In this document: positions 1,425 to 11,780 of the stretch, piece after piece
Numbering within the stretch: position 1 is the first letter of the stretch
Layout of the letters: each line of letters opens with the position of its first letter
Source: an uncultured archaeon
GTDB lineage: Archaea > Iainarchaeota > Iainarchaeia > Iainarchaeales > JAAZKV01
Direction of reading: 5' to 3'
DNA length: 15,457 bases
Assembly: GCA_964551375.1 (NCBI GenBank)
Contig: CAZKBG010000002.1
Coordinates: 1 to 15,457, forward strand
Position numbers and translations under genes: made by a program
The notes under the pieces: model-generated
Told to the model about the DNA's origin: nothing
Databases searched by the model: none
What the model saw: the letters and a program-made list of their open reading frames with translations, nothing else

Positions 1425-2084
1425 TTAATCAATTAATCTAACAAACCGCTCAATTTCCTCAAAATTCTTTGCTAAAAATAGAGGTCTAAATCTTCTCAAC
1501 TGATTTTCAGTAGAAATGCCGGTGGATTTTGCAATAAATTTAACTCCAAGACGCTGGCACATCAAACCATCCTGAATAGAATCTCCAATAAATACAATTT
1601 CGCTTGGTTTTAATTTTAATTTCTTCAACGCAACAACAAGAGGCTCCACATCGGGCTTTTTATGTTCCACATCATCGCTTGTAATGATAAATTTTAACTG
1701 CGATTTTGTTTTCTTATCAAAAACCGTGTCAACAAAAAGGTGCCTTGAGCCAGTAACTACTCCAAGCGGGAATTTTTTAGACATTTTTGCAATAAACTCT
1801 TTTGAATCCTTAAACCACAAAGACTTTGCTTTATTCTTTTTTAGTAGTTTAACAAAATACTTTCTTCTAAATTCAACAAACTTAGGCAAATCAATTACTT
1901 GTTTAGTTGAATCCATCAAATAATACGCAATATCCCTTGAGTGAAGCAAAGACAAATCCCTCATCTTTTGGGGAGTCACTTTAAAACCAAATTCCTTAAT
2001 CGCAGCGCTATCACTTTGCATAATCAGCGGAACAGAATTAATCAAAGTCCCATCAAGATCAATCAAAATAGCCCTAATTTTCAT
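1425..2084 (-). CDS. HAD-superfamily phosphatase (subfamily IA-like)
   Basis: 219-aa ORF with all four HAD motifs: I = LIDLDGTL (DxDxT), II = VVTGS, III = HKKPD, IV = FIGDSIQD. Confidence 0.85.
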   Translation of the reverse strand: MKIRAILIDLDGTLINSVPLIMQSDSAAIKEFGFKVTPQKMRDLSLLHSRDIAYYLMDSTKQVIDLPKFVEFRRKYFVKLLKKNKAKSLWFKDSKEFIAKMSKKFPLGVVTGSRHLFVDTVFDKKTKSQLKFIITSDDVEHKKPDVEPLVVALKKLKLKPSEIVFIGDSIQDGLMCQRLGVKFIAKSTGISTENQLRRFRPLFLAKNFEEIERFVRLID

Positions 2085-2108
2085 ATCGGAAAGATTAAAC
2101 CACTAACC

Positions 2109-2116
2109 AATATAAA
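2109..2116 (-). promoter_or_regulatory. TATA box for the HAD gene (leaderless)
   Basis: The minus strand reads TTTATATT, centred ~28 nt upstream of ATG at 2084. Confidence 0.35.
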
Positions 2117-2173
2117 CCTAACCAGAAGATGAATTCTATAAGCAAGCCAACTAGCTAAGTTAGTTGAACTATT

Positions 2174-2320
2174 GCCCCGATAGTGCAGTGGTCAAGCACG
2201 TCACCCTCTCACTGCCTTTTCTCTTTTAGGAAAAGAGAAAAGCTAAGTTGCCAAAAGAGAAAAACTTTTGACGACTGCAAGAGTGCGGTGGAGACCCGGG
2301 TCCGAATCCCGGTCGGGGTA
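2174..2320 (+). tRNA. tRNA-Glu, anticodon CTC, interrupted by a 74-nt intron at the canonical 37/38 position
   Basis: Acceptor 2174-2180/2313-2319 (G1.U72 wobble), discriminator A2320. D stem GTGC/GCAC with loop AGTGGTCAA. Anticodon stem TCACC (2201-2205)/GGTGG (2287-2291). 5' half-loop CTCTCA (2206-2211) plus C2286. T stem CCGGG/CCCGG. Mature length is 73 nt. Confidence 0.85.
2212..2285 (+). other. Archaeal tRNA intron with a bulge-helix-bulge splice motif
   Basis: 3-nt bulge TGC (2284-2286). 4-bp helix CTCT (2206-2209)/AGAG (2280-2283). 3-nt bulge CAC (2210-2212). Outer helix TGC (2213-2215)/GCA (2277-2279). Cleavage after the 2nd bulge nucleotide gives exactly the 37/38 junction. Confidence 0.8.
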
Positions 2321-2381
2321 TTAGAGAAAATGGTTGTGTATACTCCCTGTTTCTTAAAGTTAACTCCAATGATACGCACTA

Positions 2382-2390
2382 TTTTATATT
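2382..2390 (+). promoter_or_regulatory. TATA box upstream of the 2421..5478 gene cassette
   Basis: TTTTATATT lies ~35 nt upstream of GTG 2421. A partial SD (AGGT, 2411-2414) lies between them. Confidence 0.3.
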
Positions 2391-2420
2391 TTGCCGTAGT
2401 ATTTTAAGCTAGGTAATATC

Positions 2421-3593
2421 GTGCTTTTTGAGGTTTCAACAGGAAGGAATGAAATTCAAGTCATGGGAAATAATGCAGTGCTTAAAAGAAAAAATGGCGA
2501 AAGCATTCCAATACCATCAACAAGCGCGCTTGCAAAGCTTTACAAGGAACTAGCTGCTAAAAATACGCCTGAAGTGCAAAAAAAGCTAAAGGATTATTCT
2601 GATAAGTTCCCAAAAATAATGGAAGGGGACACAATAATTACAGGCGATAATACAATAGTAATTGTCCGCTCTTCATACAACAAGGGAAAAGACAAACCGA
2701 TTGAAGGAATGAAGCAAACTGCATCAAAATCAATTAATTTTGGCCCTGATTCTGAAATACGATTTTTAGGAGTTAAAAAATGGATCCGAGAGGACAAAAC
2801 CGCTCAGAAAAAATACTTTGGCGAAATGATTGAAACAATAGAAGTAAAAAAAGCAGGTTTCTTTTACTGCTCATACAGCAACTGCGAGGACACTTTAATC
2901 ACCCCAACAGCGCTTGTGGACTTTTTAGGTCTTGGAGGAGGCGTAACATTTGATTATTACAACGGAGCGCTTTATAGCGTTCCATGCCCTTCTGAAGGAA
3001 TTGGCGAAAAAGGAAGCATAAAATTCACAAACAAAAACACCAAAAAATTTTTTACCTCAAAAACAATTGAAGAAGTAATTGTCACAAGCAACGCAATTTA
3101 CAAAAAATCCTTTGCCAAGATGGACCAAATAAACTTTTTCTCCGCAAGCCAAATTGGAATGCTCGCAGTGAAAGATTTTATTCCTGATACAAGCGAAGAC
3201 CAGTACGCGCAAATGGCTAAAACAGGGGACAAAATGATGGAAGTATTTGCAAATATTGAAATGTTTAAGCAAATGGATCCAAAAGATATTATAAAATTGG
3301 CAAAGCAGGGAGGCGCCACACCCGAACAACTAAAAGAATTTGAAGACTTGCCTGAAAAACTTAAAATGATGGAAAAACAAATGCCAATGGATAAAGTAAT
3401 CAACGTTGTAGCACAGCAAAAGGCGTTCTATGAAGGAATGGGCGCGCAGGGATTTGCAAGCATGGCAAAAGTGCAAAAAAAAGCCCAAGTCAAAATGAAC
3501 GAACACTTTGACAAGGAATTCAAAGAATTTGCAAACAAGTCAAAAGAACCAAGAAAATACGGACCATTAACAAACGAATTTAAGGTGGCTTAA
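2421..3593 (+). CDS. Hypothetical cytoplasmic protein 'A': beta-rich N-terminal two-thirds plus a Met/Lys/Glu-rich helical tail. No recognisable family.
   Basis: 390-aa ORF from GTG 2421, with an alternative ATG at 2463 (Met15). No signal peptide or TM segment. No nucleotide-binding or catalytic motif that I recognise. Shares motifs with the next gene (see findings). Confidence 0.7.
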   Translation: MLFEVSTGRNEIQVMGNNAVLKRKNGESIPIPSTSALAKLYKELAAKNTPEVQKKLKDYSDKFPKIMEGDTIITGDNTIVIVRSSYNKGKDKPIEGMKQTASKSINFGPDSEIRFLGVKKWIREDKTAQKKYFGEMIETIEVKKAGFFYCSYSNCEDTLITPTALVDFLGLGGGVTFDYYNGALYSVPCPSEGIGEKGSIKFTNKNTKKFFTSKTIEEVIVTSNAIYKKSFAKMDQINFFSASQIGMLAVKDFIPDTSEDQYAQMAKTGDKMMEVFANIEMFKQMDPKDIIKLAKQGGATPEQLKEFEDLPEKLKMMEKQMPMDKVINVVAQQKAFYEGMGAQGFASMAKVQKKAQVKMNEHFDKEFKEFANKSKEPRKYGPLTNEFKVA

Positions 3594-3595
3594 TT

Positions 3596-5137
3596 ATGGC
3601 TGAAAAGAAAAAAATAAAACAGAAAAACATTGTTCAAAAAACTTCGGTCAAAAAAACGGCAAATAAAGAAGAAACTATTATTGATAAGGATCTTGCTGAA
3701 AAAATGATGAAAGCAAAAGAAGATGCAATGAAAAAGTTTAACTCAGTTGCCATGGGAAACTCAAAAGAAATAGAAGAATCAAGAGAAAAAGGAAAGCAAG
3801 TCGGCGCAATTTATAAGGAACTTGAAGAGTGCAACAAAATTGAGGAAGAATTCAAGACAAATCCTCCCTTAATGACAAGCGTTCATATTAATGGAAAACT
3901 CATTTCACAGGTTTATGATAAAGGAGTTATAGATAAAATTGCAATGCTAAAAAAACACTCGATTTCGTTTACTCCTGCTGTACACCACCAGTCAACTTTT
4001 GGAATAGAGTTTAAGGTGTTTGGCAGGGCTTATGTAAAAAGAAGCGGGCAAAAAATTCCTCTTGAAGAAAGCTTTACAGAAAATACTTTCGTTCTAAAAG
4101 ACGGCGATATTATAGGCACTGAAAATTCATCATACGTTTTTGACTTAAAAGAATACAACGAGACAGACAAAAAAAGCACAAGCATTATCATTTATCCAAA
4201 AAGTGAAATGCGCTTTTCGCTTAATGAAACCGTGACAAACCCAGCGCCCGCATTTATGGACCCTTCCAAAGTGTCAAACGCAATAAAAAGCAAGTCAAAA
4301 TCAACTGTTATTAGCCAAAAACTAACGCAAGTTGAACCATTACAGGGATTATTTTTTATTTCAATAAAAAGAGAAGGAAATGATGTGACCAAAATGCTGA
4401 AATTTGGAGCTTCATATCCAAAAATAAAATTTAAATCAGCTTCGGCAATTTATGCTGGCGTAGTAGGAGACTTAATGGAAAAAATGAAAGCGCAAAACCC
4501 AAAACTCGCGCAAATTTACGAAGCAAAGACAAACATGAGCTCAAATATTAAGGGGGCTGCAAATAGAACTTGCGATGAAATAACAGGATTCTTTGAATTA
4601 TCCGGTGACGGCTCAATAGTTATTACAAGAAGCGGGAATTTAATAGTTCATGAAAGCATCGGCAAAGAAACAAGAAAAGTTCCCACAAACGCGCTCAAGC
4701 CGATAAAAGCAACTTTTACTCATGACGCACTCTATGAAACTGATACTGGAAAGAATCCTGACAATAGAGTTGCCAAAATGGTGGAACAAGCTGCCTCCCT
4801 ATCAATATATGCGGGCGCGATAAATATGAAGAAAAGCATAGAAGAAAGGGGGAAAATAATGGGCAAGGCAAGCTCAACAAAAGATGCAAGCGTCCAAAAA
4901 GAAACCGAAGGAATGCTAAGATACGCGCAGGAAAGCGGGGATAAGGAACTCATTGAAGCTGCGCAGGCACAAATGAAATCAATGCAAAGTTATCTAAACA
5001 GCGGAGGAAGCGCGGCTGAAGAAAATGGAATACTAAAGTCCATAGCAGAATATGAAAAACAAATAAGCGCAGTAAAACCAAAACTATTATCAAGTCTTTC
5101 GCCTTATTCAAGTCCTTCGGGAAGCGACAAAGCTTAA
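3596..5137 (+). CDS. Hypothetical cytoplasmic protein 'B', paralogous to protein A. Has a Lys-rich N-terminus and a Ser/Pro tail.
   Basis: 513-aa ORF. SD AAGGTGG (3582-3588) lies inside the 3' end of the upstream gene, and its stop is 2 nt before ATG 3596, which suggests translational coupling. No TM segment or signal peptide. Confidence 0.75.
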   Translation: MAEKKKIKQKNIVQKTSVKKTANKEETIIDKDLAEKMMKAKEDAMKKFNSVAMGNSKEIEESREKGKQVGAIYKELEECNKIEEEFKTNPPLMTSVHINGKLISQVYDKGVIDKIAMLKKHSISFTPAVHHQSTFGIEFKVFGRAYVKRSGQKIPLEESFTENTFVLKDGDIIGTENSSYVFDLKEYNETDKKSTSIIIYPKSEMRFSLNETVTNPAPAFMDPSKVSNAIKSKSKSTVISQKLTQVEPLQGLFFISIKREGNDVTKMLKFGASYPKIKFKSASAIYAGVVGDLMEKMKAQNPKLAQIYEAKTNMSSNIKGAANRTCDEITGFFELSGDGSIVITRSGNLIVHESIGKETRKVPTNALKPIKATFTHDALYETDTGKNPDNRVAKMVEQAASLSIYAGAINMKKSIEERGKIMGKASSTKDASVQKETEGMLRYAQESGDKELIEAAQAQMKSMQSYLNSGGSAAEENGILKSIAEYEKQISAVKPKLLSSLSPYSSPSGSDKA

Positions 5138-5175
5138 GAATTTAAAAGTTATAATTAATGCACGGAGGTGCAATT

Positions 5176-5478
5176 ATGGGAATAATGGATGATGCTTTAG
5201 GAAATATTGTTAATCGAACAAAAGACTCTCTTTCCTACAAAGCAGGCGATTTAATTACTGGCGCTGCTGTTAAAGGAGCAGGAAAAATTGCCAATAAAGC
5301 AACAGGTGCAAAAAGCGCCGTGCTTGATAAATGCCCAAAATGCAAGACAAAACTCCAGCCGGATGCAAAGTTCTGTCCTTCATGCGGACAAGCATTAGTA
5401 GTAACATGCCCTAAATGCAATGTTGCATACCAGTTAGGAACAAAGTTTTGCACACAATGCGGCGGAAAATTAGCATAA
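5176..5478 (+). CDS. Double zinc-ribbon protein (DZR-like)
   Basis: Two CxxC-x(10-12)-CxxC ribbons: CPKCKTKLQPDAKFCPSCG and CPKCNVAYQLGTKFCTQCG. The ORF opens at 5158, but a strong SD (GGAGGTG, 5163-5169) sits 6 nt before ATG 5176, so 5176 is the likelier start. Confidence 0.75.
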   Translation: MGIMDDALGNIVNRTKDSLSYKAGDLITGAAVKGAGKIANKATGAKSAVLDKCPKCKTKLQPDAKFCPSCGQALVVTCPKCNVAYQLGTKFCTQCGGKLA

Positions 5479-5588
5479 CAAAATTGCTTTTGACTGCCCT
5501 GTTGTGCAGATATTATACTGCATGTAATTGTTGCTTCAATTTAGTTGAAAATATGCTTCTAATTGGATTCAAAAGCCGAAATACTTTG

Positions 5589-5597
5589 TTTTATATA
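5589..5597 (+). promoter_or_regulatory. TATA box for the pilin-like/giant-protein gene pair (leaderless transcript)
   Basis: TTTTATATA is centred ~26 nt upstream of ATG 5619 with no SD between them. It lies in a 140-nt intergenic gap. Confidence 0.45.
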
Positions 5598-5618
5598 TTT
5601 CCAAGTTATTAACTTAAT

Positions 5619-6302
5619 ATGCAAAAAACTGGTTTTAGGGCGCGAGAGAAAGAGTTGGTTGCCCAAGGGACAATCGAGTATCTTGTTATTATTGCGGTTG
5701 TTATAGTTTTGGCGTTGGTTGCTTCTTATTTTATGTTTGCTTCTATGGGTTCTGCTTCTCAGGCTGATAAGGCTTCTTTGAAGGCTGCTTGGCAGTCTAA
5801 GGAAGTGGGGATTGCTGATTTTGCGGTTAATGAGGATGGGAATGGGCAGATTGCGATTATGAATAATTCTTCAGGGCTTGCGAGGATAAAAAAAGTTTAT
5901 ATTAATGGGGTTTTGACTTATGATGGGACTTTGCCGCTTTCGCAGTTTGATAGGTATACTATTGGTTCGTTTGCGAGTGCGGTTGCTTCGTGTAGTTCTA
6001 ATGTAAGGTATAGGATAAGAATTATTTATGAGTCTGAGTCGGGTCTTGAGCAGATTGTTGAGGGGGATTTGTATGCGGAGTGTATTCCGAATTTTTTGGT
6101 GAGTGGTTTCTTTTCTTTGGGCGCGGGGGTTGATTTTAATTCTGGTGCTTCAGATAATGTTGCTCTTCAAGATGGGAATTATGCCTTAGTGGATACTAAT
6201 TTGTTTAATTCGGTTGTTCTTGATAATATTTCTGATTTGAGTGTTGTTGATTCTAATACGAGTCATGTTGGTGGGCAAGTAATTTTAGGGCAGGCGAGCT
6301 AA
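5619..6302 (+). CDS. Archaeal type IV pilin-like protein with a class III (prepilin-type) signal peptide
   Basis: 227-aa ORF. The charged N-terminus MQKTGFRAREKELV is followed by AQGTIEYLVIIAVVIVLALVASYF (5661-5730). This matches the class III / DUF361-type motif (A/G)Q(G/A)xxEYL plus a hydrophobic helix. The remainder is beta-rich. Confidence 0.75.
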   Translation: MQKTGFRAREKELVAQGTIEYLVIIAVVIVLALVASYFMFASMGSASQADKASLKAAWQSKEVGIADFAVNEDGNGQIAIMNNSSGLARIKKVYINGVLTYDGTLPLSQFDRYTIGSFASAVASCSSNVRYRIRIIYESESGLEQIVEGDLYAECIPNFLVSGFFSLGAGVDFNSGASDNVALQDGNYALVDTNLFNSVVLDNISDLSVVDSNTSHVGGQVILGQAS

Positions 6303-6303
6303 A

Positions 6304-9300
6304 ATGAAAATGAAGACTGCTTATTGGGTTGTTACAATATTTTTTATTTTAATTTCTTTATCGGTTGCATTTGCTTATAATTGTCCTGGTGGAGATGGAA
6401 GCAGTGACTTAAATATTTCCACAAACACTACTTGGGCTAGCGCGACTGATTATAATTGCAATAATGTTTTCATAACAAATGGCTCCATGTTGACTTTTAA
6501 CTCAAGAACTGCGGGCTCAAAAATAACTCTTTACGCAGCAAGTCTTACAATTGATGAAAACTCAAAAATATCTTCTGATGATTACGGCTCGTTAAACGGA
6601 GCTGGTTCTGGTGCGGGCGGAGCAGCATATGCTGGAGGGGGAGGAGCAGGATATGGTGGAGCTGGAGGCGCTGGTTCTGGGGCTGGAGGAGCCGCTTTTG
6701 GTGTAAGTGATATGAATCAGCCTACTTCTTTTGGTTCAGGGGGAGGAACAAGCACAAACTATAGCTCAAGAGGAGGATACGGCGGCGGAGCAATCAGACT
6801 AATAGTTAGCGGAACAATTACAAATAATGGAATTATTTCAAGCAACGGCGGAATGGGTGCTGGATCCGGAGGATATGTTGGCGGCTCGGGTTCCGGAGGA
6901 AGCGTTTGGATTGATGCAAATATATTAACAGGAATCGGGCGAATTGACGCAAACGGCGGACCAAGGGCAAGCGGTTCAGCAGGCGGAGGGGGAGGAGGAA
7001 GAATAGCAATTTATGTTCAAAACAACTCTTCACTTCCTGCAATAAATGTATTTGGAAGCAGCGGTTCTGGAAGCAACGGCTCAATATTCCTTTCAGCAAA
7101 CAATTCTGATTTTAATGTTCCAAGTCTAAATACAGGCGACTTGAATGTTTTTAGAGTAAAAAACTTTTACAGTTTAATAACTTCAGGAAGCAATTATAGA
7201 TTTGTTGTTGTAAATTTAAGCGGAGACTTTAACGGCTCTGTTTCTGCAGGGCTTCAATCTGACACAAATATTTCGGGAGCAAATATTTATCCTGACAACA
7301 TAACAAGCGGGAAAATAAAAATTGTTTCAACAAACCTCAATCTTGCAAGCGGGAAAAATATTTCAGCAAACGGACTCGGTAATTTGAATGCTGCGGGTGC
7401 CGGAGCTGGCGGAGCAGGATATTGGGGGGCTGGAGGAGCAGGATATGGAGGGGCAGGAAGCGGAGGCTCAAGCGGTGCTGGCGGGGCTTCATTTGGTTTA
7501 AGCGATATGAACCAGCCGACTGCGCTTGGCTCTGGTGGAGGAACAAGCACAAATTACACCACTCCTGGAGGTTATGGAGGGGGAGCTATTAGATTAATTA
7601 TAAACGGGACTCTTACAAATGAAGGAATAATTTCAAGCAATGGAACTCCTGGCTCTGGCTCAGGCAGCGCGGTTGGAGGAAGCGGTTCTGGAGGAAGTAT
7701 TTGGATTGATGCAAATGTTTTAACAGGAACTGGAAGAATTGACGCAAACGGCGGAATGGGAGTAACTAGCGCAGCAGGGGCAGGGGGAGGAGGGCGAATT
7801 GCAGTTTATGTTTTAAGAAATTCTTTTATTTCATCAATAAACACTATGGGGGGTTCTGGCAGCGGAACAGGAAGCCGAGGGTCTGTTTTTATTTCATCAT
7901 TAGGGTATGACTTCAACATTCCTAATGTATATGCTGGAGATGTAAATGTAACTGGAGTTCGCAATTTTTATAGCAGTATTTCATCGAGCGGAAACAGCAG
8001 GTTTGTTGTTTTTAATTTAATCGGAGATTTTAATGGCTCAATAACATCAGGCCTTCAATCAGATGTAAACATTACAGGAGTAAATATTAATCCAAGCACA
8101 ATTATTGGGGGAAGAATAAGAATCACCGCAACAAGCCTTACACTTTCAAGCGGAAATACAATTTCAGCTAATGCCCTTGGCTCAATAAATAGCGCAGGAA
8201 CTGGAGCTGGCGGAGCAGCATATAACGGGGGCGGGGGTGGAGGTTATGGTGGAGCTGGCGGAGCGGGCTCGGGAAGCACTGGCGGAATAGCTTATGGCTC
8301 AATGTCACAGCCAACTGATTTAGGCTCTGGCGGGGGATTAAGTACTAATTATGGTAATATTGGCGGATACGGCGGAGGAGCAATAAGAATTATTTTAAGC
8401 GGAGCTTTGGCAAATGATGGAATAATTTCAAGCAACGGCGGGACAGGAACAAGCAGTTCTTCTTATGCAGGCGGAAGCGGTTCTGGGGGAAGTATTTGGA
8501 TTGATGCGGGTTCTCTTTTAGGAACAGGGCGAATTGATGCAAATGGAGGAGTGCTCGCAACAGGCTGGTCTGGCGGAGGAGCTGGAGGAAGAATAGCGCT
8601 TTATGTAACCGGGGCATCAACAATGGGGGCAATTAATACAACCGCAAGCGGTTCAGGAAGCAACGGCACAGTATATATCTCATCAACAGGATCTGATTTT
8701 AATGTTCCAACAATAATAACAGGAGACACAAACTTTTTAGGAATCAGAAACTTTTTTGGGACAATAACCTCAAGCGGAAGCTCAAGGTTTAATCTAATAA
8801 CAATAAACGGGGATTTTAATGGTTCAATAACAGCAGGGCTTCAATCAGATGTTAATATCACAGGCGGGAACTTGTACCCTGACACTATTATTGGAGGAAA
8901 AGTAAAACTTGTTGCAACAAATATTAGTATCGCAAGCGGAAAATTAGTTTCAACAAATGCGCTTGGAAATGTTAATTCAGCAGGAGCTGGAGCTGGCGGA
9001 GCAGCATATAATGGCGGAGGGGGAGGGGGATACGGTGGAGCTGGCGGAGCGGGCTCCGGAAGCGCTGGCGGAGCAGTGTATGGCGCAAGCGATGCAAATC
9101 AGCCGACCGCACTTGGCTCTGGCGGTGGATTAAGCACAAATTATGGCAACATAGGGGGTTATGGTGGCGGGGCAATTAGAATAATTGCAAGCGGAACATT
9201 TTCTAATAATGGAATTATATCTTCAAACGGCGGACTTGGCACAAGTAATTCTTCTTATGCTGGAGGAAGCGGTTCTGGAGGAAGCATTTGGATAACAACA

Positions 9301-10092
9301 AATAAGTTTAACGGCGCAGGAAGAATTGATGCAAACGGCGCTCCAGGAATAACCGGCTGGGCAGGGTGCGGAGGAGGAGGAAGAATTGCAATCTGGTATG
9401 ATACAAATACATTTAGCGGAAATATTATTGCTTCAGCTGGATGCGGAGGAGGAGGCGCGGGGTCAAGGAACTGGGTTTATAGTTATGCGGGACCAAATTA
9501 CATTTTAAGCGGGAGTTTTACTTCAAAGAAAATTAATTTAGCTTATGGAAAAGATTTTAATGTTCTTAATTTTGATGTGAATTTGCCAAGCGGAACAAAT
9601 GTTTCGTTTAAGTTAAGGACTGCCTCAAACAGCAGTGATTTGGATAATTCTCCTTGGCTTGGTCCAAGCGGAACAACTGCAAGCGATGATAATTACTCAA
9701 CAAGTGGAACAGCAATTTCTGGAGTTCATGACGGTAATTCTTGGGTTCAGTGGAAAGCATTCTTATCAACTGCAAGCGCTACTTCAACTCCCATAGTTTT
9801 TGATGTTAATATTATGGTTAGAAATAAGGTTGATTCGAATGCGGTGTTTGTTTTGGAAAAGGGGGTTCAGTATAATTGGTTGAGTTTAGTGCCAACTCAA
9901 GCGCTTAATGGCGGGACAATTAATTGGTATTATTGTTTGACTCAAAATTGCGCGTCTTGGATATTGCTTGGGCCAAGCGGGGGTTCAATTGGCCAGACAA
10001 ATCAAAATCTTTATTTACTTGCAACAATGCACCCTGATGAAAATAACAATTCCCCACAAATAAGCGAAGTGCTTGTGCACTATTCAAAATAA
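6304..10092 (+). CDS. Giant secreted glycine-rich tandem-module surface protein (putative beta-helical adhesin), without a C-terminal anchor
   Basis: 1262-aa ORF. Sec-type signal peptide MKMKTAYWVVTIFFILISLSVAFA|Y. Four ~265-aa modules, then a ~200-aa non-Gly-rich C-terminal region. No TM segment or sorting signal at the C-terminus (...EVLVHYSK*). ATG 6304 is 1 nt after the pilin-like gene's stop. Confidence 0.85.
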   Translation: MKMKTAYWVVTIFFILISLSVAFAYNCPGGDGSSDLNISTNTTWASATDYNCNNVFITNGSMLTFNSRTAGSKITLYAASLTIDENSKISSDDYGSLNGAGSGAGGAAYAGGGGAGYGGAGGAGSGAGGAAFGVSDMNQPTSFGSGGGTSTNYSSRGGYGGGAIRLIVSGTITNNGIISSNGGMGAGSGGYVGGSGSGGSVWIDANILTGIGRIDANGGPRASGSAGGGGGGRIAIYVQNNSSLPAINVFGSSGSGSNGSIFLSANNSDFNVPSLNTGDLNVFRVKNFYSLITSGSNYRFVVVNLSGDFNGSVSAGLQSDTNISGANIYPDNITSGKIKIVSTNLNLASGKNISANGLGNLNAAGAGAGGAGYWGAGGAGYGGAGSGGSSGAGGASFGLSDMNQPTALGSGGGTSTNYTTPGGYGGGAIRLIINGTLTNEGIISSNGTPGSGSGSAVGGSGSGGSIWIDANVLTGTGRIDANGGMGVTSAAGAGGGGRIAVYVLRNSFISSINTMGGSGSGTGSRGSVFISSLGYDFNIPNVYAGDVNVTGVRNFYSSISSSGNSRFVVFNLIGDFNGSITSGLQSDVNITGVNINPSTIIGGRIRITATSLTLSSGNTISANALGSINSAGTGAGGAAYNGGGGGGYGGAGGAGSGSTGGIAYGSMSQPTDLGSGGGLSTNYGNIGGYGGGAIRIILSGALANDGIISSNGGTGTSSSSYAGGSGSGGSIWIDAGSLLGTGRIDANGGVLATGWSGGGAGGRIALYVTGASTMGAINTTASGSGSNGTVYISSTGSDFNVPTIITGDTNFLGIRNFFGTITSSGSSRFNLITINGDFNGSITAGLQSDVNITGGNLYPDTIIGGKVKLVATNISIASGKLVSTNALGNVNSAGAGAGGAAYNGGGGGGYGGAGGAGSGSAGGAVYGASDANQPTALGSGGGLSTNYGNIGGYGGGAIRIIASGTFSNNGIISSNGGLGTSNSSYAGGSGSGGSIWITTNKFNGAGRIDANGAPGITGWAGCGGGGRIAIWYDTNTFSGNIIASAGCGGGGAGSRNWVYSYAGPNYILSGSFTSKKINLAYGKDFNVLNFDVNLPSGTNVSFKLRTASNSSDLDNSPWLGPSGTTASDDNYSTSGTAISGVHDGNSWVQWKAFLSTASATSTPIVFDVNIMVRNKVDSNAVFVLEKGVQYNWLSLVPTQALNGGTINWYYCLTQNCASWILLGPSGGSIGQTNQNLYLLATMHPDENNNSPQISEVLVHYSK
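6520..9486 (+). repeat. Four in-frame tandem coding modules (6520-7311, 7312-8112, 8113-8898, 8899-~9486; the last is truncated)
   Basis: Module starts KITLYAASLTI, KIKIVSTNLNL, RIRITATSLTL and KVKLVATNISI lie 792, 801 and 786 nt apart. GGYGGGAIR, GGSGSGGS(V/I)WI and GRIDANG each occur once per module (4 times). GDFNGS..GLQSD occurs in modules 1-3. Confidence 0.9.
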
Positions 10093-10150
10093 ATTTAAAA
10101 ATTAATTATTAACTTACTAAGATAGAATTATTTAGGATAAATTTTTTAGT

Positions 10151-11728
10151 TTAAGTTCTTCTTGGCAACTCTTCAATAGCTCCATCAACTACTTTTAGTA
10201 TTCGTTGAGCGATTTTGTCAATGAAATATCTATCATGAGAAACAGCAACAATTGCTCCCTCGTAACTTAAAAACGCTTTTTCAATAATTTCACACGCATC
10301 AAGATCAAGATGGTTTGTAGGCTCGTCAAGGAGCAGAATATTTGGCTTTGTGAGAAGAACTTTCAATAAATTAAGCCTTGATTTTTCGCCAAAAGATAAA
10401 TTTGAAATTGATTTGCTAACTTCTTCATTAGTAATAAATCCAACCATTGACAAACTCTGTCTTGTTTTTGCCTTATCCTTAAGCATTGCAAAAATCTCAT
10501 CATAAAGAGTGGAATGCGCGGTTAAATCCTTTAATTCTTGATCAACATACCCTAATTTTCCCTGCTGGTCAAGAATTGCTTTTCCGCCAAGCGGAGGAAC
10601 TCTTCCCTCAATAGTTTTGAAAAGAGTGCTTTTGCCGATTCCATTCTCGCCGATTATTATAATTCTCTGCCCAACGCAAACGTTAAGATTAATATGTGAA
10701 ATCAGCGGCTTTTTGTAGCCAACTGTCAAGTCATTAAGCTCAAGAACCATGTGCGATTTTATCGGAGATGCCTCAAAAGGAGTTTCAAAATCCGACTGGT
10801 CAAGGTCAGGCTTTTCAATAACTTCTCTTTTCTCAAGAAGCTTAACCCTGTACTTCATCTGCTTAACTTTTTTCGGACTCGTTCCAATTCTTGCAATCTT
10901 GTCTTTTTGCTTCTCTAAATAATCCTGCTCATTTTCATACGCTGTCTGCTGCGCAGCAAAATTAGCTTCCCTGATTTTTAAATAAGTGGAGTAATTTCCG
11001 TTATACTTAGTCAATTTTCCGCTTTCTATTTTTATAATCGAGCTGCAAATCTGATTCAAGAAATATCTGTCGTGAGTAACCATGAGAACAGTTCCCTTGA
11101 AGGATTTTAAATAATCTTCAAGAATTTCAAGTCTCTTAAAATCCAAATGATTTGTTGGCTCATCAAGAAGCAAAAAATCCGCGTCTGAAGACAAAATCTG
11201 CGCAAGCGCAATTATTGCCCTCTGCCCTGTTGAAAGCGAGCCAACTTTTTTGTCAAGCCACTCATCAGTAACATCAAGAGTTTTTAAAACAGATTTAATT
11301 TTATTTGTGGGGGTAGTGTCATTGTGCTTCGCAAGCTCTGTTTGAAGCGCTACATACTTCTCAGTCAATTTATTCAATCTGTCATGATCTTCATAAACTT
11401 CAGGCAAAAGAAGGAGTTTTTCAATTTCCTGCATTTCCTTTTCAAATTTATTTTGATGATGAATTGTGGCTCTTTGAGCGATTACTTCCCATCCTGTTTT
11501 ATTCAAATCAATATCAATATTTTGGGAAAAATAAGCCGCTTTGCCGTTAAAATTAATGTGCCCGTGATAATCAACCATTCCCAAAATCGCTTTTAAGAGA
11601 GTAGTTTTTCCAACACCGTTTCTTCCAATAAGCCCAACTTTTGCGCCGTCCTCAATTCCAAAGCTTTCATCAAGGAGAATCTCCTGCTTTCCAATAGTAA
11701 TTCCAAGGTTCTTAACAGTCAGAGCCAT
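10151..11728 (-). CDS. ABC-F family ATPase (two ABC domains, no TM domain; EttA/YbiT-like translation-factor type)
   Basis: Walker A GRNGVGKTT and GENGIGKST. Signatures LSTGQ and LSFGE. LLLDEPTNHLD occurs twice. A charged ~80-aa interdomain linker is present (YLKIREANFAAQQTAYENEQDYLEKQKDKIARI...). The track ORF starts at TTG 11734, but ATG 11728 (MALTVKNL) is the likelier start. Confidence 0.85.
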   Translation of the reverse strand: MALTVKNLGITIGKQEILLDESFGIEDGAKVGLIGRNGVGKTTLLKAILGMVDYHGHINFNGKAAYFSQNIDIDLNKTGWEVIAQRATIHHQNKFEKEMQEIEKLLLLPEVYEDHDRLNKLTEKYVALQTELAKHNDTTPTNKIKSVLKTLDVTDEWLDKKVGSLSTGQRAIIALAQILSSDADFLLLDEPTNHLDFKRLEILEDYLKSFKGTVLMVTHDRYFLNQICSSIIKIESGKLTKYNGNYSTYLKIREANFAAQQTAYENEQDYLEKQKDKIARIGTSPKKVKQMKYRVKLLEKREVIEKPDLDQSDFETPFEASPIKSHMVLELNDLTVGYKKPLISHINLNVCVGQRIIIIGENGIGKSTLFKTIEGRVPPLGGKAILDQQGKLGYVDQELKDLTAHSTLYDEIFAMLKDKAKTRQSLSMVGFITNEEVSKSISNLSFGEKSRLNLLKVLLTKPNILLLDEPTNHLDLDACEIIEKAFLSYEGAIVAVSHDRYFIDKIAQRILKVVDGAIEELPRRT

Positions 11729-11780
11729 ACACAATTAACAATTAGGCAAATTCTTAAATGATGCTAAAGAAAGGGGGTTT

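Follow-up and report, generated by a model that had tools for sequence, protein, structure and literature searches.

A rare, laterally exchanged three-gene module encoding two paralogous proteins and a double zinc-ribbon protein in DPANN archaea and candidate phyla radiation bacteria

The window analyzed here is a 15,457-nucleotide (nt) stretch of DNA from an uncultured DPANN archaeon of the Iainarchaeota (positions 1 to 15,457 of contig CAZKBG010000002.1, from assembly GCA_964551375.1, which is 1.09 Mb and 93% complete), and our subject is a group of three forward-strand genes within it, which we refer to as A, B, and Z. Gene A (2421 to 3593) has a GTG start and codes for 390 amino acids (aa), gene B (3596 to 5137) codes for 513 aa, and gene Z (5176 to 5478) codes for a 100-aa double zinc-ribbon protein. 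These are real and tightly coupled genes, with the coordinates and spacing given to them by an earlier, sequence-only reading of this DNA (the original prediction). Only 2 nt separate A from B, at a TAA-TT-ATG junction, and a Shine-Dalgarno-like AAGGTGG for B (3581 to 3587, forward strand) is embedded in the 3' end of A, 8 nt ahead of the ATG at 3596; the two genes are probably cotranslated. The N terminus of the A protein, (M)LFEVSTG, agrees with the MLFDVSTG of its homologues. Z follows B after 38 nt and is preceded by a perfect Shine-Dalgarno sequence, GGAGGTG (5164 to 5170, forward strand), 5 nt ahead of the ATG at 5176. Because of this signal, and because the aligned Z homologues all start with MG(I/L/F)xD, Z most likely starts at 5176; the ATG at 5158, with which a longer open reading frame (ORF) begins, is probably not used. 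A TATA-like box, ATTTTATATTTT (2381 to 2392, forward strand), can be read about 30 nt 5' of the A start, and is a candidate promoter for the A-B-Z unit.

The association of these genes extends well beyond the window. Metagenome contigs and species-representative genomes yielded 19 independent loci, every ORF of which we scored with profiles built for A, B, and Z. B follows A directly in all 19, with gaps ranging from −8 to +46 nt (median about 6), and Z is present in 17; the order is Z-A-B at eight loci and A-B-Z at another eight, and Z lies divergently upstream at one. Of the two loci lacking Z, one is cut off within B. When the flanking ORFs of the 19 loci were clustered all against all, no other recurrent gene emerged, and the neighbors at the other loci are unrelated housekeeping genes, including those for tRNA synthetases, DNA repair, transporters, and the like. 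What is conserved is A-B(-Z) alone, and this bears out the suggestion, a fallback in the original prediction, that it is an independent novel system.

The possibility that prediction put beside it, that A-B-Z is the dedicated intracellular machinery of the genes immediately downstream, fares poorly. The class III signal-peptide (pilin-like) gene of the window starts at 5619, behind a 140-nt spacer that contains a T-run and a TATA-like box 22 to 29 nt ahead of the pilin ATG, and the GC skew rises abruptly, from about 0.08 to 0.35, at about position 5500. At the 18 other loci, phmmer identified no homologue of the pilin-like protein or of its giant glycine-rich partner within 6 to 10 kb, so that A, B, and Z homologues are never linked to such genes there. 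A regular-expression scan for class III signal-peptide genes near the module in those loci returned nothing credible, its only hit being one spurious antisense ORF. The module proteins do not match the P-loop or T2SSE families by which a pilus or archaellum assembly ATPase would be recognized. An appendage link is not supported because no other locus has a pilin or giant-protein homologue, and because the downstream genes have their own spacer and TATA-like box beyond a break in composition; with no co-occurrence of the module and pilin genes, we rejected a role as pilus machinery. We also note the base composition on the two sides of this break, the pilin-like and giant genes (5500 to 10092) having a GC content of 0.43 to 0.46 and a GC skew of 0.23 to 0.35, and the A-B-Z genes 0.34 to 0.40 and about 0.07.

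The A and B proteins were thought from four pairs of short motifs to derive from a duplication, and profile comparisons bear this out while extending it. Direct comparison by BLASTP is not significant (best E value, 0.099), and the motifs alone therefore do not beat chance; the four motif pairs nonetheless fall exactly in columns that the profiles align, but a further match, at 'ITGFFELSGDGSIVITRS', does not occupy an equivalent position (an alternative hit has an E value of 0.22). Alignment of profiles with hhalign gives a probability of 95% and an E value of 2.7e-8 with 13 A and 5 B sequences, and a local alignment of larger sets, 28 sequences for A and 12 for B, gives 99.0% and 6.3e-18 over 196 columns. 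Those columns span the entire beta-rich region, pairing A residues 6 to 233 with B residues 108 to 368, and a global profile alignment (E value, 3.5e-25) extends to the C-terminal Tyr-Pro tails of both proteins. In addition, the A protein of a divergent relative (locus L014) matches the B profile with an E value of 3e-15. By these profile alignments A and B are full-length paralogues arising from duplication, rather than proteins that merely share a domain, with B additionally having an N-terminal extension (a Lys-rich tail and a helix of 58 residues) and, at residues 282 to 322, a helical insert.

AlphaFold (AF2) models of both proteins are confident, with mean predicted local distance difference test (pLDDT) scores of 84.6 for A and 86.1 for B, and a predicted template modeling score of 0.73 for each. 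A is composed of a beta-rich head (aa 1 to 238), a Met-rich helical region (aa 239 to 375) in which the model has long helices at 259 to 375, including one of 53 residues, and a conserved C-terminal tail, PRxYGPLxxxFKVA. B begins with a Lys-rich disordered tail (aa 1 to 29; Lys accounts for 30% of the first 30 residues) and a 58-residue helix (31 to 88), followed by a beta head homologous to that of A (about aa 126 to 392) that carries the helical insert, then long predicted helices (390 to 497) and a tail, LPxYSxPxxSD. The Met-rich tail of A and the Lys-rich start of B that were noticed originally are thus present, and the C terminus of B, described originally as coiled-coil-like, is predicted to form long helices. 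The A tail, as delimited by the family alignment and the pLDDT profile, corresponds to aa 377 to 390 (3549 to 3590, forward strand); across 28 family members Y380 is invariant, and P382 and L383 are nearly so. Because the pLDDT of this tail (91) exceeds that of the helices ahead of it (about 80), it may dock back onto the head, and the B tail may do likewise, the C-terminal region of B also being well predicted (pLDDT 84 to 94).

Met residues make up 8.6% of the helical domain in the A protein of the window and 10.2% on average in the 28 family members (range, 6.9 to 13.6%), versus 2.3% in the beta head, and seven columns of the helical domain are at least 50% Met. Met enrichment in helical bundles is a hallmark of plastic hydrophobic surfaces that bind peptides, such as those in the SRP54 M domain, the Get3 groove, and the calmodulin lobes, and the conserved enrichment in A, about fourfold over background, would by analogy resemble these. 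A differs from them in having no Pfam match to SRP54 M or similar families at an E value of ≤1 and no GTPase or ATPase partner. The N terminus of Z is a conserved helix region, MGxxDxxxNxxKDxLSYKAG, which precedes two Cys4 ribbons formed from four CxxC pairs (CPKC, CPSC, CPKC, and CTQC; eight Cys in all). It matches the Pfam family DZR (PF12773) with 47.2 bits against a cutoff of 27.3 (E value, 2.4e-12) and Zn_Ribbon_1 (PF13240) with 46.7 bits, and its earlier description as a double zinc-ribbon protein is correct. We found no transmembrane segments or signal peptides in A, B, or Z (the maximum 19-residue Kyte-Doolittle mean is 1.41) and no catalytic signatures, as had been said of A and B. 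All three proteins are basic, with isoelectric points (pI) of 9.0 to 9.3.

A and B were also described as belonging to no known family, and more extensive searches agree. As single sequences neither has a match in Pfam, NCBIfam, PADLOC, PHROGs, or the sequences of the Protein Data Bank (PDB), and scanning 28 A-family members separately, together with consensus sequences, likewise gave no match in the sequence libraries. An exhaustive hidden Markov model search of 1.84 billion representative proteins recovered only 37 relatives of A with E values of ≤0.001. With PADLOC-DB v2, the best hits are ZorC for A (E value, 0.026; 11 bits) and DruE for Z (E value, 0.36), with none for B, and none of these is a real match. 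There are no A relatives among IMG/VR viral contigs and no PHROG matches for A or B, and a Foldseek search of the A model against the BFVD viral structures returned nothing with an E value of ≤0.001. Our search of the available literature library found no paper describing the A-B-Z module. The novelty of A-B-Z rests on elimination, in that every known family tested failed, and no demonstrated new mechanism stands behind the label.

The only significant structural neighbors, and these for A alone, are FecR-like anti-sigma domains. Foldseek aligns the beta head of A with structures 4m0h and 4m0n (E values, 1e-4; best, 1.3e-4) and with PupR (6ovk; 2.6e-3), with a probability of 1.0 over about 150 columns, but with a target template modeling (TM) score of only 0.40 and a root mean square deviation of 8 to 10 Å. 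The B model, in spite of its homology to A, has no FecR structure among its top 50 fold matches, and it has no significant match of any kind in PDB. Many Hsp70 (DnaK) substrate-binding domain chains are among its weak matches, and the likeness would be that of a beta head beneath long helices; these matches are nonsignificant (E values, 0.14 to 0.7; probability, ≤0.5; TM score, <0.2), and B has no nucleotide-binding domain. Sequence comparisons do not support FecR membership. The FecR family profile, PF04773 (gathering score, 24 bits), finds nothing in A, B, or 28 A-family members at an E value of ≤1, nothing in a joint consensus of the A and B heads at ≤10, and nothing anywhere in the genome from which the window derives at ≤0.01, whereas control genomes do match. 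With a thin FecR profile of six sequences (Escherichia coli FecR and five plasmid-borne FecR proteins), hhalign comparisons of the A, B, and joint-head profiles give E values of 0.19 to 0.37 and probabilities of <1%; the best of these nonsignificant alignments place the family hairpin 'K-l-x-D-G-D-x-I-x-T-G' over the FecR hairpin 'L-x-D-G-S-x-l-x-L-N'. With so thin a profile, a deep homology is still conceivable. The likeness of the head to FecR is thus one of fold, seen in one of the two models, and the head is not a demonstrated family member.

The resemblance to FecR and PupR, whose C-terminal periplasmic domain PF04773 represents, is restricted to the head fold of A. Unlike them, A and B have no N-terminal anti-sigma domain, transmembrane helix, periplasmic location, or partner in the form of an extracytoplasmic function sigma factor or TonB-dependent transducer, and the module also differs in being present in archaea, which are not known to have sigma factors. 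None of the 19 loci contains a sigma factor or TonB-dependent receptor gene. An anti-sigma system was considered and rejected, the hosts being mostly archaea, with neither a transmembrane helix nor a sigma factor. The literature search turned up no paper linking FecR with DPANN archaea, or a FecR domain with a zinc ribbon.

The module is widely but thinly spread. Named hosts include Micrarchaeota (among them the complete genome of Candidatus Fermentimicrarchaeum limneticum), Iainarchaeota, Woesearchaeota/Nanoarchaeota, Pacearchaeota, and one bacterium of the Paceibacterota, a member of the candidate phyla radiation (CPR), and two more contigs have plainly bacterial neighbors (UvrABC, Ddl, FemAB, a peptidoglycan-binding protein, and MacB). 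A is present in 5 of 215 genomes of the window's phylum, and in 2 of 22 in its genus, counting this one; there are about 14 strong matches among 401 genomes of the Micrarchaeota-type phylum, 3 among 371 of the Nanoarchaeota-type phylum, and one together with one weak hit among 401 sampled Patescibacteria. The prevalence by genome therefore ranges from 0.8 to 4% across the three DPANN phyla and is about 0.25% in Patescibacteria. A further word-indexed protein search with the B alignment added no new sequence, low-complexity words having swamped the candidates. Phyla are intermingled in both the A and the B trees. The Z-A-B loci group together, although in the B tree one locus of the other order (A-B-Z; L022) is placed among them, and three B proteins from bacterial contexts form one clade with 100/100 support.

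The genomic position is also variable. The interval between the conserved HAD hydrolase gene and the ABC-F gene (1425 to 11734 of the window; compared at loci L051 to L061) is hypervariable within the genus: in one genome it is about 2 kb and holds two genes, and in others it contains unrelated proteins of 1000 to 2100 aa and pilin-like genes. Genome G121, of the same genus, carries a very divergent module at the same place, with an A protein that is only about 26% identical while the flanking HAD protein is 65% identical. The interval has the look of a hot spot at which surface-protein genes and accessory cargo accumulate. A-B-Z is a rare, laterally exchanged accessory module in a variable genome region; a provirus origin was rejected in view of the housekeeping flanks and the lack of viral matches. 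The gene at the far end of the interval (10151 to 11734, reverse strand) encodes an ABC-F type twin ATPase (two ABC_tran domains and ABC_tran_Xtn) that is 77% identical in a same-genus genome. Separately, the A proteins of locus L012 (genome G005, in a record named Candidatus (I)ainarchaeum, of the window's order) and locus L021 (in a record named Woesearchaeota) are almost identical, with branch lengths of 0.058 and 0.056, reflecting either a recent transfer or a problem of binning or labeling.

Extended forms of the module occur in G121 and in several Micrarchaeota, some of them with a second B copy. DUF4352 immunoglobulin (Ig)-like domains are found in such variants, either fused after the B tail or encoded by a separate gene (L014, 119 to 4644; L069, 12052 to 12570; protein P0053). 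Five Micrarchaeota-type loci (L069 to L073) share a four-gene variant in which an all-helical protein of about 250 aa is encoded between A and B, with Z on the opposite strand. This fourth protein is conserved, has a hydrophobic C-terminal end, and belongs to no Pfam family; the idea that it corresponds to the N-terminal extension of B was rejected (hhalign E value, 0.25). Small ORFs with loosely similar sequences lie between B and Z at L001 (12657 to 12917, reverse strand; 86 aa) and L005 (12838 to 12984; 48 aa), and may be an optional fourth component or spurious. A NifU-like identity was suspected for them and has no Pfam support.

As to what the module does, we give about an even chance to the reading that A-B-Z is an autonomous, horizontally exchanged module encoding a soluble, nonenzymatic protein complex that is separate from the pilin/giant device. 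A single transcript would yield A and B in similar amounts, and the two would pair through their stalks into a hetero-oligomer, with the conserved tails folded back onto the heads. Z would be the third subunit, probably held through its N-terminal helix in the plastic, Met-lined helical bundle of A, leaving its ribbons, together with basic surfaces, to contact a target that could be a protein, a nucleic acid, or an acidic membrane. Because no catalytic motif is present, the complex would work through binding, in the role of a sensor, adaptor, or scaffold. The coupling of A to B at all 19 loci, and the retention of Z at 17 of them in two gene orders, favor such a complex. Several points weigh on the other side. 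The stalk pairing, the tail docking, and the contact between the Z helix and the Met-lined groove are drawn from predicted secondary structure, pLDDT profiles, and analogy, and that A, B, and Z bind one another is something we infer. The charge of the proteins is weak evidence for a target, because pI values of 9.0 to 9.3 are common in AT-rich small genomes. The DUF4352 Ig-like domains of the variant modules, which are usually extracellular, fit poorly with a purely cytoplasmic complex. A common bacterial architecture combines a cytoplasmic zinc ribbon with a transmembrane helix and an outer domain, for example DUF4352, and with a genuine DZR protein in Z and DUF4352 in the variants the parts list of A-B-Z is similar to that of small double zinc-ribbon envelope proteins; Z differs from these in lacking a transmembrane segment and in having a family-specific N-terminal helix, and the parts here are separate soluble proteins.

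Other explanations draw on much of the same evidence. The rare and patchy occurrence (0.25 to 4% of genomes), the exchange between phyla and domains, the divergent G121 version within a hypervariable interval, and the modular accessories (second B copy, DUF4352, and the helical 250-aa protein) would also be expected of a conflict or defense module, whose beta heads sense a protein of an invader or partner cell, and whose Met-rich or helical parts, or Z, execute a response by perturbing a membrane or blocking translation or transcription. This seems unlikely, however, as there is no PADLOC match, no nuclease, ATPase, protease, TIR, SIR2, or pore-forming signature, and no occurrence in IMG/VR contigs, and the flanks are housekeeping rather than other defense genes. 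If instead the heads joined head to tail, each tail inserting into the next head, and Z and the Lys-rich tail of B anchored the lattice to a membrane or DNA, the module would specify a structural polymer or cytoskeleton-like scaffold. The design shared by the two paralogues, a head, a stalk, and a conserved tail modeled with high confidence, would suit this, as would the coupled expression of A and B, the lack of enzymatic parts, and weak fold matches to proteins in which coiled coils emerge from heads (Rad50/SMC heads and the colicin R-domain). We nevertheless consider it fairly improbable: a structural element should be widespread in its lineage, yet only 2 of the 22 genomes of the genus, this one included, have the module; there is no similarity to bactofilin, crescentin, ESCRT-III, or SepF; and a free C terminus is not required, since P0030, P0050, P0057, and B' proteins with a DUF4352 extension continue past the tail.

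The FecR-like fold of the A head, the conserved Met columns of A, the eight Cys of Z, and the presence a few genes away of a cupredoxin gene (L001) and a Zip transporter gene (L005) raise the question as to whether A-B-Z is a divergent soluble FecR-type signaling pair, or a metal-handling set with Met-rich Cu(I) sites and Cys4 Zn sites. We find this very doubtful, given that all of the FecR sequence tests fail, that the B model retrieves no FecR structures, that there is no sigma factor or TonB-dependent transducer nearby, and that the metal-related neighbors do not recur. A cytoplasmic assembly machinery for the pilin-like/giant glycine-rich pair, taking the place of a missing ATPase and platform, has in its favor that A-B-Z lies on the same strand immediately upstream, but is exceedingly improbable in light of the neighborhood and composition data above, the lack of NTPase or membrane platform features, and the presence of the module in CPR bacteria, a group not known to employ class III signal peptides. 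More speculatively, A-B-Z could be a previously unrecognized nonenzymatic cytoplasmic device that is traded among ultrasmall archaea and bacteria along with accessories that can be swapped (an extra copy of B, DUF4352 domains, and the helical 250-aa subunit), acting either as a sensor-effector conflict system with FecR-like heads and Met-rich helices, or as a self-assembling head-to-tail scaffold; we regard this as possible, but would sooner expect it to be wrong than right.

The genomes of DPANN archaea and CPR bacteria are tiny, and much of the biology of these organisms resides in unannotated genes. Among these, A-B-Z is well defined, consisting of co-travelling genes that have no database family, with two confident models and clear signs of transfer across phyla and domains, at a hypervariable site beside surface-protein genes, and it therefore lends itself to experiment; its three proteins, being soluble and of modest size, would allow study of the accessory functions that symbionts exchange. 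We view the finding as a good lead rather than a discovery, such modules being rare accessories.

We note one further feature beside the module. ARAGORN calls only a tRNA-Met in the window, at 3 to 77, and misses a tRNA-Glu with a long intron at about 2179 to 2322, just 5' of gene A. A predicted ORF at 2183 to 2407 is not a gene, and overlaps this tRNA-Glu.

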